30,642 nt of DNA from a virus. Taxonomy: Duplodnaviria; Caudoviricetes. The notes under the pieces are model-generated. The model had not been told where the DNA came from. It searched no databases and was given only the letters and a program-made list of their open reading frames with translations. Positions 1-30,422 of the stretch are shown here, in pieces. The DNA is taken from the IMG/VR virus record IMGVR_UViG_3300036779_000147, positions 1 to 30,642 of that record; one strand, given 5' to 3'. The translations under genes were made by a program, and so were the position numbers. How positions within the stretch are numbered: the first letter of the stretch is position 1; every line of letters starts with the position of its first letter.

Positions 1-846
1 GGCAAAGCACGGCGTGGCTGGTCGAGGCTGGCAGAGCAGAGCTGGTCTTGGCGTATCGGGCAAGGTCTTGCACGGCGTAGCGAGGCGAGGCTGGCTAGGC
101 AAAGCCGAGCACAGCGGGGCGAGTCGTGGCACGCCTAAGTCTGTCATGGCGAAGCGCAGCCGGTCGAGGCTGGCAGCGCTAAGCACGGCTCTGCGGTGCT
201 GAGCAGGACAGTGTCCGGCTCGGCACGGCCCAGCCGAGCGCGTCGAGGCTGGCTCTGTATGGCTTTGCGCGGCAGAGGCGAGGCGCGGCCGGTCGAAGCA
301 AGGCTGGCGGGGTTTAGCCTGTCTTGGCCGGGCTTGGCGTAGCGTCGCGATGCGTGGCTGGCAAGGCTGGGCTCGTCAACGCACGGCAAGTCGTTGCCGG
401 TCCTGGCGAGGCGCGGCGCAGTATGGCGAGGCCGGCGCGGCGCGGCAGCTCCGAGCAGCGCATTGCTCGTCGCTGCCCTGCTTGGTCTGGCTGGGCATGG
501 CGAGGCTGGCGCAGCAAGTCCCTGCGCAGCGAGGTGCGGCAGGGTAGGCAGTGTCCAGCACGTCACGGCGAGGCTGGCAGTGCGCGGCCCGGTGATGCTC
601 GGCACGGTAGGTCCGAGCTGGGCACGCCGTGGTCGGGCGTGGCGTTGCACGGCAAGGCTGGCGCGGCTTTGCTGGTCTTGGCGCAGCAACGCGTGGTTTG
701 GCGCGGCGTGGCGAGGCTGGCCTTGCATGGCACGTCCTGGCTGATCCGCGTTGGGCGAGCCCGGGCGAAGCGAGGCTGGCGGAGCGGAGCATGGCACAGC
801 CGGTCCAGGCGCGGTATGCCTCGGTCAGGCTGGGCAAAGCTGGCAA
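1..846 (+). repeat. Array of degenerate GGY-NN pentamers in 12 complete units (plus a partial one) separated by a 4-nt GGCT phase shift; truncated at the left edge
   Basis: Hand parse. Units start at 30, 93, 172, 251, 306, 360, 434, 508, 576, 660, 719, 778 and 842 (lengths 63, 79, 79, 55, 54, 74, 74, 68, 84, 59, 59, 64; 9 of 12 are 5n+4). Example unit 778-841: ggcGG agcGG agcAT ggcAC agcCG gtcCA ggcGC ggtAT gccTC ggtCA ggcTG ggcAA agct. Position 3 of every full pentamer in my parse is C or T, and the boundary consensus is C(G/A)AGGCTGGC. Confidence 0.95.
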
Positions 847-851
847 GCGAG

Positions 852-882
852 AGGGCGAGTCCTTCGGGACTCGCCCTTTTTT
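852..882 (+). terminator. Rho-independent terminator closing the array
   Basis: AGGGCGAGTCC-TTCG-GGACTCGCCCT is a perfect 11-bp stem with a C(UUCG)G tetraloop, followed by a T run that overlaps the stop of the convergent Cro-like gene. Confidence 0.93.
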
Positions 883-1117
883 AACCAAAGAGATCGGGCC
901 GTTGTACCTCACGCGGAATGCCGAACTCTTGTTCAATTACCCGCATATGTTTGAGCGGCACCAGCTTCCACTGAATAACCGCTTGTCTTGAAATATTGCC
1001 GCAAATCTCCATGACGCGCCCGATGCGATCGTGCGCCGTCAAGAATTCGATCACCTGTTCCGGCGTCTTGATTCGCTTCGCTGTCAGCGTCGTCGTGTTG
1101 AGCACACCGCGGGGCAT
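881..1117 (-). CDS. Cro/YdaS-like helix-turn-helix transcriptional regulator (78 aa)
   Basis: C-terminal part of the 881..2479 ORF, from the ATG at 1117: MPRGVL...ICGNISRQAVIQWKLVPLKHMRVIEQEFGIPREVQRPDLFG. The IS-QAV-QW--VP...IE---GIPR---RPDLF pattern is typical of Cro/YdaS-like phage proteins. Confidence 0.85.
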   Translation of the reverse strand: MPRGVLNTTTLTAKRIKTPEQVIEFLTAHDRIGRVMEICGNISRQAVIQWKLVPLKHMRVIEQEFGIPREVQRPDLFG

Positions 1118-1237: not shown

Positions 1238-2191
1238 GTGAAGAGCATTCAGTGGGACCATAATCCGGTAAGTGTGGGCGGCTGCTACGCCGGCATTCCA
1301 CTTGAAGAATACCATGCCGATTTGTGCGTTGGCCCGTCGGTGTCGTCGAGCGGCCTGCGGATCATCTATCACAAGAGCCCGCTGCACTTCTTCGATCAGT
1401 CGTATCTGAATCCATCTCGCGAAGAGCGTGACGAAGCCAAGGCCGATCGTGAATGGGCGGTGCTCGGCTCGGCCTCGCATAGTTTGCTGGTTGGAGGTGT
1501 CGGAAGTTTCCGCGATTCGTTCGTGATCCGTCCACGATTCGCCCCCGACCGCACCGGCCGTGCATGGCATGCATCGAATCACTCTTGTCAAGAGTGGATG
1601 ATCGCGCGCCATCGCGAGGGCAAGATGGTATTGACCGACGCCCAAGTCGAGGTCGTCAGAGGCATGGCGATCCAACTGTCCAAGCACCCGATGGTCGCCG
1701 GTGGCGTCCTTGATGGACTGATCGAGAGAAGTCTGATTTGGCGCGATCCTGAAACAGGAGTTTGGCTCAAAAGCCGGCCCGACGCGATCCCAACCGACTC
1801 GGGCGATGTCGCCGATCTCAAGACGACGCGCTCGGTGGTGATGAGCGATGTGGTCCGCACCATCGGCGAGCTGTCCTATCACCAACAGGCAGCGCTGATC
1901 GCCGACGGCCTCAAGGCCGTGTTCGACATCGAGATGAAGAGCTTCACGTTGGTGATGGTCGAGAAGACGCGGCCGTTCTGTGTGCGCGTTACCCCACCGA
2001 TGCATCAGGACGATATCGAAAGAGGTAGACGACAAAACCGCGTCGCGTTGCGCACCTTCGCCAACTGTCTGGAAAGCGGACGTTGGCCCGGTCCCGATCC
2101 CGGCGACGACAGCGGCCCACGTTCCCTGAACCTCTCGGTGCCGCAGCGCGAACGGATCGATGCGCGACTTCGAGTTGAGGGCATGATTTGA
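1238..2191 (+). CDS. recE: RecE/exonuclease VIII-like PD-(D/E)XK nuclease (DUF3799-type)
   Basis: Motifs EEYHAD...SVSSSGL...SP..F, GSASHSLL, IERSLIWRDPETGVWLKSRPD...VADLKTT, YHQQAA, VEKTRPF. GTG start after GAGAGG; RecT lies nearby. Confidence 0.88.
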   Translation: MKSIQWDHNPVSVGGCYAGIPLEEYHADLCVGPSVSSSGLRIIYHKSPLHFFDQSYLNPSREERDEAKADREWAVLGSASHSLLVGGVGSFRDSFVIRPRFAPDRTGRAWHASNHSCQEWMIARHREGKMVLTDAQVEVVRGMAIQLSKHPMVAGGVLDGLIERSLIWRDPETGVWLKSRPDAIPTDSGDVADLKTTRSVVMSDVVRTIGELSYHQQAALIADGLKAVFDIEMKSFTLVMVEKTRPFCVRVTPPMHQDDIERGRRQNRVALRTFANCLESGRWPGPDPGDDSGPRSLNLSVPQRERIDARLRVEGMI

Positions 2192-2197
2192 TGTCTC

Positions 2198-2635
2198 ATG
2201 GTCCAGTGGCCCGAGTGGCGTGTAGTTCGGCTGCGGGAGCTGATCGGCGACGGCAACATGTCGGCAGCCGAGATCGGCAAAGAACTCGGCGTGTCCAAAA
2301 ACTCGGTGGTCGGCAAGGCCGAGCGGCTTGGTCTCAGGCTCGCCGGGCATCGCCCACCGCGACCAAAGCCGAAGCTGCGAACCGTGGCACCACCGCCACC
2401 GCCGCCACCAATGCCGGAACCAAAGCCACCTCCGCCGCCCGATACGCTCACCAATCAATTCGAGGGCAGCACCGGTCACTATGCGCTGTTTGGGGTGCCG
2501 ATCGCCGGATGCCTGTGGCCAATCGGCGATCCGGCAAGCCAGGACTTCCGCTATTGCGGCGCCAAGCGGCAGGCATCATGCCCGTACTGCGCCGAGCACG
2601 CCAAGATGGCGTACCAACCGAGGAAAGACAGATGA
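2198..2635 (+). CDS. gcrA: GcrA-family cell cycle regulator homolog
   Basis: N-terminal W..RV..LREL..G.MSAAEIGKELGVSKNSVVGKAERLGL, Pro-rich linker, C-terminal CLWPIGDP...FRYCG....PYCAEHAKMAYQP. Confidence 0.92.
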   Translation: MVQWPEWRVVRLRELIGDGNMSAAEIGKELGVSKNSVVGKAERLGLRLAGHRPPRPKPKLRTVAPPPPPPPMPEPKPPPPPDTLTNQFEGSTGHYALFGVPIAGCLWPIGDPASQDFRYCGAKRQASCPYCAEHAKMAYQPRKDR

Positions 2636-2859
2636 CCGGTCTGCAGCTCTTCGCATTCCGCGCGCTGATCGTGCTGGCAACGCCAACCATAATCACATGG
2701 GCGGTCGTTGACCGACTGATCTCCGAATTCAAGTTGGGGTTTCGCATGGCATGGCTCGATGCGAGATCGGTGTGGGGCGATGCCTCCGATGCCTGGAACG
2801 ACGCCGCAACCATGACCTGGGCCGAGATGAAAGAAAAAGTGGAGAAGTCCCGTGAGTGA
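2632..2859 (+). CDS. Small hypothetical membrane protein (75 aa)
   Basis: ATGA overlap with the gcrA stop and AGGAAAG upstream. Hydrophobic N-terminus MTGLQLFAFRALIVLATPTIITWAVV. Confidence 0.7.
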   Translation: MTGLQLFAFRALIVLATPTIITWAVVDRLISEFKLGFRMAWLDARSVWGDASDAWNDAATMTWAEMKEKVEKSRE

Positions 2860-3802
2860 TACTGGCCAGACCCGTGAGCAGCGGCAATCGCTGCTGATTG
2901 ACTCCAAGCTCGACAGCGAGCGCATCGGCGAGATGACGATCTCCGGCTCGCAGCCGGGCGAGCTGGTCGGCGTCAAGTTCGCTTCGATGCTTGAGGTGAT
3001 GGAGTTCGCTAAGTTGATGGCGCTCGCCGACACGGCGGTGCCACCGCATCTGCGCAACAAGCCGGGCTCGTGTCTCGCCGTCACCATCCGCGCACTGCAA
3101 TTACAGATGGACCCATTCACCGTTGCCAATTGGAGTTACGAGGTCGAGCAAAAGGGCGTCAAGCGGATCAGCTATGAGGCGGCGTTCTACAACGCTGTGA
3201 TCCTCGCGCGCGCACCGATCGACGGCCCGCTCGAATACGAAATCCTCGGTGAGGGCGACGAGCGCAAATGCAAAGTGACGTTCACCTTGCGCCGCAGACA
3301 CAAGACGATCTCCTACATTTCGGAAAAGCTCGGCAAACTGCGACCTGGGCGCAACGAGAGCGGCACCATCAAAGGCTCACCGCTGTGGGAGAAAAAGCCC
3401 GAGGTGCAGATGATCTACAACACCGTGCGCGACGTGGCGCGGATTTACTTCCCACACGTCACCGCCGGGCTCTACACATCCGACGAGCTGGCCGACTTCG
3501 ACGAAGATCAGGTGACGATGGAGCAGCCGACGGCTGGCCTGCTGCAGCGCCTGCAGCCACGCGCCACCGACGAGGGCTTCAATCAAGCCACCACCGCCGG
3601 TCAGTTCGACGAGGCGATCCAGGCCGCGCGCGCGCCTGAGCCCGAGATCATCGAGCCGGAAAAGAAGCCACGCACCCGCAAGGGCGGTGCGACCAATGCA
3701 GCCACCGGTGACGACCCGGCGGCTGAGCAGGCGGCGTCCTCTACTGCCCCTCGTTCACAAGGGGACGCCGCCGAACCACAAGGAGACAAGAATGGCACGT
3801 GA
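2852..3802 (+). CDS. recT: RecT-like single-strand annealing recombinase
   Basis: VMEFAKLMA....VPPHLRNKPGSCLAV...ALQLQMDPFTVA...SPLWEKKPEVQMIY...ARIYFPHVTAGLYTSDEL, then an acidic disordered tail. Paired with the RecE-like gene. Confidence 0.85.
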   Translation: MSDTGQTREQRQSLLIDSKLDSERIGEMTISGSQPGELVGVKFASMLEVMEFAKLMALADTAVPPHLRNKPGSCLAVTIRALQLQMDPFTVANWSYEVEQKGVKRISYEAAFYNAVILARAPIDGPLEYEILGEGDERKCKVTFTLRRRHKTISYISEKLGKLRPGRNESGTIKGSPLWEKKPEVQMIYNTVRDVARIYFPHVTAGLYTSDELADFDEDQVTMEQPTAGLLQRLQPRATDEGFNQATTAGQFDEAIQAARAPEPEIIEPEKKPRTRKGGATNAATGDDPAAEQAASSTAPRSQGDAAEPQGDKNGT

Positions 3803-29930: not shown

Positions 29931-30422
29931 ATGAACCCGCGTCGTCTCGATTTAACTGGGAAACGATTTGGGCGTCTCGTTGTGTTGAAGATGGATCACA
30001 TCAACCGTCACCAACAGTCAATGTGGAAGTGTCGGTGTGACTGCGGTGAAACCATCGTCACTAGCGGATCGACACTAAAGGGTGGTCGGTCGCGATCTTG
30101 CGGTTGCTTCAAAGCGGACAGGGCGCGTGAGACAGCTCATCGACACGGCCAAAGTCGAACGACCGAATATCGAATATGGGCTTACATGCTGCAGCGCTGC
30201 ACCAATCCAAACAACACGAAGTTTCATCTCTGGGGCGGTCGCGGCATCAAGGTGTGCAAGCGCTGGCGAGATTTCGCGAACTTCTTCGCCGACATGGGTA
30301 AGCGCCCATCGCGAAAGCATTCCATCGATCGCTACCCAGACATGAACGGCAACTATGAACCGACCAACTGCCGTTGGGCTACAGCCAAACAGCAATCAGC
30401 CAACAGCAGGCGCTGGGCTTAG
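29931..30422 (+). CDS. HNH-type homing endonuclease inserted antisense in the late operon
   Basis: DLTGKRFGRLVV...WKCRCDCG...RSCGC...EYRIW..M.QRC.NPN....GGRGIKVC.RW..F.NF..DMG.RP....SIDR...NGNYEP.NCRWAT; GAGGAGG upstream; lower GC than flanks. Confidence 0.92.
   Translation: MNPRRLDLTGKRFGRLVVLKMDHINRHQQSMWKCRCDCGETIVTSGSTLKGGRSRSCGCFKADRARETAHRHGQSRTTEYRIWAYMLQRCTNPNNTKFHLWGGRGIKVCKRWRDFANFFADMGKRPSRKHSIDRYPDMNGNYEPTNCRWATAKQQSANSRRWA

Follow-up and report, generated by a model that had tools for sequence, protein, structure and literature searches.

The DNA analyzed here, the 30.6-kb virus record IMGVR_UViG_3300036779_000147 (called the window in what follows), carries phage genes for a tail sheath, tail proteins, an HNH endonuclease, exonuclease VIII, GcrA and a RecT-like protein, i.e., judging from this gene content, it is a piece of the genome of a contractile-tailed phage. 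The host is probably an alphaproteobacterium, because of the GcrA gene and of the targets described below. The 5' end of the contig cuts into an array of pentamers, which is followed by a hairpin, a convergent Cro-like gene and the early region (Table 1). At the other end, the HNH endonuclease gene (window 29931-30422, opposite strand) is inserted among the tail genes beside the sheath gene.

Table 1. Features of the pentamer array and its surroundings in the window
Feature	Position	Strand	Remark
Staggered GGY/NN-type pentamer array, predicted vrRNA array	1..841	+	13 parsed units, 29-84 nt
Predicted guide against the Arm-DNA-bind_3 + Phage_integrase family	360..433	+	Same elements as the target of 719-777
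Predicted guide, 10 specifying pairs and a boundary pair	719..777	+	Match to the predicted second helix of an AlpA/excisionase-like gene
Predicted guide against the Cro-like gene of a close phage relative	778..841	+	P0122
Hairpin of 14 bp with a T run, closing the array	849..882	+	-27.7 kcal/mol, z -4.6, 0/200 shuffles as stable
Cro-like repressor, 78 aa, self copy of the 778-841 target	881..1117	-	PHROG match of the relative
Exonuclease VIII-like, GcrA and RecT-like genes of the phage early region	1238..3802	+	Context

The 5-base period of the array is real: over positions 1-850 the autocorrelation at lags 5 and 10 is 0.47 and 0.46, and the corresponding values in the adjoining coding region are 0.27 and 0.26. 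The most frequent trimers are GGC (81), AGC (27), GTC (18), TGC (15) and GGT (11) among 171, and 145 of them are NGY, though the parser favours NGY-type trimers. Ten of the 13 units have a length of 5n+4 nt, which fits a 1-nt overlap between successive guides. The boundary 4-mer is GGCT, with GGCC once and AGCT once, and 12 of the 13 units have GA or AA as their final pair. Three units (30-92, 251-305 and 508-575) contain an internal 1-nt slip, and each of them may be two short guides or a decaying guide. No further pentamer array was found elsewhere in the window. The hairpin behind the array is likely an intrinsic terminator, which may also serve the convergent Cro-like gene; it was absent from the listing of a consensus scan, and an Rfam scan gave nothing beyond a sub-threshold partial match at this position.

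This architecture is that of the guide-RNA arrays of VIPR systems, described in 2026, whose guides consist of 9-16 GGY/NN repeats with a 1-base skip on the wobble base, according to the text of the preprint (10.64898/2026.04.26.720920). Vipr subunits are described there as binding the trimers and presenting the pairs to double-stranded DNA with the 1-base skip, and this binding represses transcription (10.64898/2026.04.26.720920, 10.64898/2026.04.26.720927). Staggered VIPR arrays with 1-nt overlaps appear in the Fig. S18 legend, with which we compared the overlap found here; the text reports confirmation by sequencing for the ribozyme and single-guide forms and none for the staggered form (10.64898/2026.04.26.720920). 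The present array is like the staggered VIPR arrays in its fixed trimers and variable pairs, 1-nt stagger, wobble skip, location on a phage and lack of a self match, and unlike them in that its trimers are degenerate (strict GGY in 92/171) and no vipr is seen in the contig. As the VIPR system, its 1-base skip code and its anti-satellite use are already published, the array is a further example, clean to specialists and no surprise, with a target class that is well supported.

The unit at 719-777 comprises 59 bases, i.e., 11 pentamers and a 4-mer, and is parsed without slip as ggcCT tgcAT ggcAC gtcCT ggcTG atcCG cgtTG ggcGA gccCG ggcGA agcGA ggcT. The third base of the trimer is a pyrimidine in 12/12 and the trimer is strict GGY in 6/12. 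The pairs read in the earlier note (CT AT AC CT TG CG TG GA CG GA GA) came out identical in this parse. The folding of the unit is no better than that of shuffles (z -0.75). The peptide that the earlier note had decoded, LMTLWRWERD, stands as a pattern found in register in real genes, whereas its position 8 does not, since the real peptide is LMTLWRWDRD with D there. The 11th pair, GA, also read as part of the pattern, is unmatched in all eight exact matches described below, which have CC; this lack of a match is explained by proline at position 11 in 107/120 homologs. The pair is probably a boundary or scaffold element, because GA or AA ends nearly every unit. The unit finds no target in the window at up to 3 mismatches of 20, as the earlier note had seen, and the best window scores of the other guides are 20/28 or lower.

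It had been predicted from the unit that targets in codon register would lie in AlpA/Xis-like helix-turn-helix genes beside integrases in alphaproteobacterial mobile elements, and such targets were found. The exact scan was performed with the first nine pairs (18 bases), and matches were then extended to 20 bases. In metagenomes this query gave nine matches, six of them in register in one family with the core MTLWRW (L021, L024-L028); all six extend to 20/20, and the three non-family matches do not. In the genome collection (596 Gb) it gave 10 matches, where ~17 are expected by chance. The family accounts for 6/9 of the metagenome matches and for 1/10 of those in the genome collection. Two of the ten (L008 and L010) extend to 20/20, and about one such match is expected by chance in this collection. 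L008 lies in register in an 83-aa gene of an uncultured Alphaproteobacteria genome, reading FNVSLMTLWRWDRDPEL, and a gene with Arm-DNA-bind_3 and Phage_integrase domains precedes it by 1.7 kb. L010 falls in a 1053-aa frame that shows no resemblance to the MTLWRW family and was rejected as a target, being at chance level. The family therefore holds 7/8 exact 20/20 matches. The viral collection gave no exact match to the 18- and 16-base patterns.

Five of the six metagenome members of the family are 86-97% identical to P0002, the L008-type protein, and the sixth (L021), which is adjoined by an integrase, is 58% identical. The exact family matches represent three distinct DNA footprints, which differ at skipped bases only. 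Over 17 distinct footprints the pairwise identity falls from 0.81 at the first codon position to 0.75 at the second and 0.54 at the third; the motif used to locate the footprints fixes some read positions, which biases these values towards such a result. Among 401 genomes of the host's order, up to two mismatches allowed 10 matches (0 in the control), two of them in the family (L008 and L031, a 19/20 match beside an integrase) and eight outside it. Four of these eight (L036-L039) are 18/20 matches in register inside one long conserved gene (open frames of 599-973 aa), which might be an off-target in the host, should two mismatches be tolerated. At the protein level, 52/120 homologs fit all 10 decoded positions, with a mean of 9.12 vs 3.81 for shuffled order and a nearly invariant core MTLWRW; since the set was gathered with the L008 protein, these values speak for conservation and not for independence. 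The skip comparison for this guide on 20 element loci (16.1 vs 13.5-14.1) is circular and was not counted, as homology to the skip-1 match had served to select these loci. Judged at the level of sequence, the decoding of the unit is above chance.

The label AlpA/Xis given in the earlier note is supported by gene position, fold and integrase neighbour, and is not supported by Pfam: Phage_AlpA matched 0/26 family members at E≤0.01, and the target family is therefore not filed as AlpA. Weak Pfam matches among the 26 members are to HTH_23 (8 members) and HTH_17 (1 member). L031 matches PHROG excisionase profiles (PHROG 1553, E 1.4e-8), one homolog carries the JGI name AlpA, and the L008 protein has no PHROG match. 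The structure model of the target protein (pLDDT 81) is predicted as helix-helix-hairpin-helix, with the guide-matched helix at 30-38; its Foldseek rows, all weak (E≥0.1), include RacA, BldC, MerR proteins and TorI mixed with MarR-type proteins. By position and modelled fold the family may be called AlpA/excisionase-like, and its activity could be that of an excisionase. In the Escherichia coli PICI EcCICFT073, AlpA activates the island, is needed for induction, and its loss abolishes transfer, as far as the source covers this point (PMC6092414). The target gene is like AlpA of EcCICFT073 and of capsid-forming PICIs in being a small DNA-binding gene located after the integrase and before primase and packaging genes, and unlike it in falling short of Pfam Phage_AlpA and possibly acting as an excisionase.

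We conclude, with a probability of roughly 0.8, that the unit at 719-777 is a staggered-array guide, likely a VIPR guide RNA that would repress the alpA-like gene and so keep the satellite from induction. In this mechanism a transcript of the array would be split at the GGCT boundaries into individual guides, which would be loaded by a Vipr protein whose gene lies beyond the contig end, upstream of the array. During infection the guide complex would sit in the alpA-like coding sequence and block the start-up of the satellite. Guide 360-433 would strike the integrase in elements of this kind. The Cro-like gene of a sister phage would be struck by guide 778-841, the mismatches sparing the phage's own copy. 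The closest published parallel in purpose is the type II VIPR of Escherichia phage SUSP1, which is described as silencing the recombinase of the F5 satellite (10.64898/2026.10.15.759431). Guide 719-777 likewise matches conserved codon positions of a gene that the satellite would need early. On the other hand, the SUSP1 vrRNAs, which are aimed at the F5 excision recombinase, have a structured ~40-nt tail that the units here lack, and the putative target here is an AlpA/Xis-like regulator in PICI-like elements, the integrase being the predicted target of a second guide. The text of 10.64898/2026.04.26.720920 does not name AlpA or alphaproteobacterial targets, though its data files may list such. 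Likewise, no printed report of an AlpA-class VIPR target was found in the literature since 2025 (two VIPR preprints and one supplement), though data files S1-S4 and the figures may list one.

The 20 homolog loci (15 regions around matches, L047, L048 and three viral loci) have a P4/PICI-type integrase within about 3 kb in 18 cases. PHROG scans covering 59/94 listed downstream ORFs in nine loci identified a primase or helicase in five loci (L066, L067, L069, L070 and L083) and a terminase in three (L066, L069 and, as a small terminase, L083). L083, an 18/20 match, has the full PICI-type gene content (integrase, alpA, primase, packaging and no tail), including portal, protease, capsid, head-tail adaptor and small terminase genes and no tail gene among 12 ORFs scanned; L066, L067, L069 and L070 have it in part. 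The gene layout of L083 is that of a capsid-forming PICI. The IMG/VR records L082 and L083 (12-18 kb), which have genes for an integrase, primase, portal, protease, capsid and small terminase as well as the alpA-like gene (18/20), are both candidate capsid-forming satellites, L083 from its own scan and L082 by its equal ORF lengths. From their gene content, the target elements appear to be satellite-like, integrase-bearing elements of soil alphaproteobacteria.

Alternatively, the guide may be real and its target the regulator of a competing prophage or of a non-satellite integrative island, so that it would serve general competition rather than defence against packaging theft. The exact-match element (L008/L047) fits this idea, for it shows no primase, terminase or capsid match among six downstream ORFs, which include a ParB-like gene; with its flanks of transposase-like ORFs (read by eye) and no packaging or primase gene seen, it may also be a defective element. 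Moreover, no integrase match is seen on the contigs, 1-3.5 kb long, of five of the six exact metagenome matches, and L068, L048 and L071 gave no informative PHROG match. Against it, the 16-18/20 loci keep the order of integrase, alpA-like gene, primase and packaging that marks PICIs and capsid-forming PICIs, with no tail gene in the scanned ORFs, and we regard the competition of prophages or islands as unlikely, though worth serious weight, compared with a guide against satellites.

The Vipr partner of the array is an assumption, because no vipr gene was found in the 30.6-kb contig, which begins inside the array. A 3264-nt contig from run X1, possibly the source sample, overlaps window 1-140 and extends about 3.1 kb upstream. 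A search with the boundary motif gave 10 viral loci, and in eight of them (L011-L015 and L018-L020), among the matches listed, the array lies behind two genes; the flanking proteins of L018 are identical to those of L020, the sequence of L016 begins with the array, and L017 is a locus of another kind. An alignment of five of the first genes shows invariant H, R and G-x-x-[DE]WR residues. These invariant His, Arg and G-loop [DE]WR residues resemble H17, R138 and D177-W178-R179 of the SUSP1 Vipr as given in the text of the preprints (10.64898/2026.04.26.720927, 10.64898/2026.10.21.760802). The best Foldseek rows for a first-gene model from another locus are Csm, Cmr6 and Cas7-type CRISPR RAMP structures, each of them weak (best E 3e-3; model pLDDT 64.5). 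The predicted RAMP fold of the first gene in the same-boundary loci rests on these rows and the motifs. In other loci a gene of 150-215 aa (PHROG 15946), a candidate for the accessory gene vap, sits between vipr and the array.

It may also be supposed that the array is a solo (orphan) one, whose vipr was lost and whose guides, with the same code and target, load onto the Vipr of another phage. The contig without vipr would agree with this, and vipr-null phages with solo vrRNAs are in print, as far as the text goes (10.64898/2026.10.15.759431). Nor was the X1 contig among the pieces listed as matching the vipr-vap region of L015 at 80% identity, though this comparison could hardly be hoped to detect vipr, since the vipr regions of these loci mostly share less than 80% identity (64-80%). 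However, the sequence upstream in the X1 contig leaves room for two genes, published solo vrRNAs have 1-2 guides where at least 13 are present here, and two genes stand upstream in most of the same-boundary viral loci listed. A solo array thus seems improbable, and a vipr upstream of the contig end is preferred. No relative with the whole locus was found by exonuclease, and Cro gave one weak match. One close relative by RecT (86%) is a linear 66-kb fragment that ends before the array region and has no vipr match, and five genomes with 39-49% exonuclease matches showed no vipr. Separately, a vipr-vap locus with the array boundary GGCA (L041:1363-2960, G135) lies in a genome of the target host's family; GGCA instead of GGCT is also found in part of L014. 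Homologs 32-35% identical to the Vipr-like protein of L013, annotated as hypothetical, occur in 32 Mycobacterium and Gordonia phage records.

Two other guides, which played no part in choosing the loci, lend non-circular support to the code at the level of sequence. Guide 360-433 fits 120 integrases with a mean best of 8.42 of 13 residues vs 4.65 shuffled, the best fit being 11 of 13 (GWSKTKQRLDAAM). Its best DNA score is 20/26, and 0/201 family genomes have a site with ≤3 mismatches of 24. It scores 17.25 on the 20 element loci vs 16.25 ± 0.13 for shuffles, and other skips give 16.5-16.7 vs 17.25 at the 1-base skip, a small margin. Guide 778-841 fits 10 of 12 residues of P0122 (GGITRQAVVQWK), which is 83% identical to the window's own Cro-like protein (P0121), and 8 of 12 of the latter (n=4 proteins); at the DNA level the own gene matches at 17/24, and pairs 3-12 of the guide have no exact match in the DNA of the viral collection. 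P0122 matches the PHROG 35 transcriptional repressor (E 1.6e-4), and the own copy has no PHROG match. Targeting of kin with sparing of self is a possible reading of this guide. It would resemble the VIPR clade of Pseudomonas fulva prophages, which in the text of the preprint (10.64898/2026.04.26.720920) is directed at regulators of lysis and lysogeny in other prophages, and differ from it in that the best-fitting Cro-like target is so close to the phage's own adjacent gene. Six of nine guides scored, plus 778-841, gave no excess on the 20 element loci.

These two guides also bear on the suspicion that the match of 719-777 arose by chance from ambiguous two-base codons as the best of many units. 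The unit was indeed picked among 13 units in two orientations, and the one exact 20-base match or so that chance would supply in 596 Gb has its example in L010; nevertheless, seven of the eight exact matches lie in codon register in a single family of small genes that had been predicted in advance, and of the other guides one decodes to the integrase of these elements and another to a relative of the adjacent Cro-like gene, which makes chance very improbable. Still less credible is that the region is simple satellite DNA or a protein-coding repeat of low complexity, since, although open frames span the array on both strands, a period of 5 with 1-nt staggers is unfit for codons, these frames resemble only frames across the arrays of L018-L020, and the variable pairs hold codon-register information on other genes.

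When the 84 units of 10 arrays were scored on 40 of the 120 integrases against 40 shuffles each, five units from four arrays reached z>5, one of them marginally (z 5.1). Units of three other phages' staggered arrays (L013:4153, L013:4069, L019 at 4252 on the reverse strand, and L020:4742) decode to different conserved motifs of the integrase family. A further one, L013:4247, stays below the z>5 cut and reads like the arm-binding motif of this integrase. We put forward tentatively, at somewhat less than even odds, that phages of soil alphaproteobacteria share, in their staggered-array VIPRs, an arsenal against satellites that is aimed at the integrase-alpA switch of PICI-like elements: the array described here would hit both genes, those of three other phages would converge on the integrase family, and the last guide would strike the sister Cro while the own copy is spared. 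If this is true, the pairs of helper and satellite in uncultured soil bacteria could be read off from guide arrays. The putative target would extend VIPR targeting to PICI-like elements of Alphaproteobacteria, namely to their activator or excisionase gene, and provide a natural candidate target for the staggered array architecture. Moreover, the exact target and the mismatched self Cro make it possible to test directly how guides are processed, how long they are and which mismatches they tolerate.

The antisense decoding of unit 576-659, V-T-T-R-T-V-[HQ]-R-L-V-[DE]-S-G-A-L, looks like an excisionase-type helix-turn-helix (HTH_17-type); as a guide against the 20 elements it was rejected, with a score no better than shuffles. 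Finally, parts of the array were found on contigs of other runs. A contig of run X2 carries window 241-437 with three differences, and contigs of X3 and X4 carry window 710-880 with 25 differences. Joints in X2 skip window 506-694 and 579-769, of which short-sided ones may stem from other organisms. These contigs suggest related arrays that share, vary or drop units.
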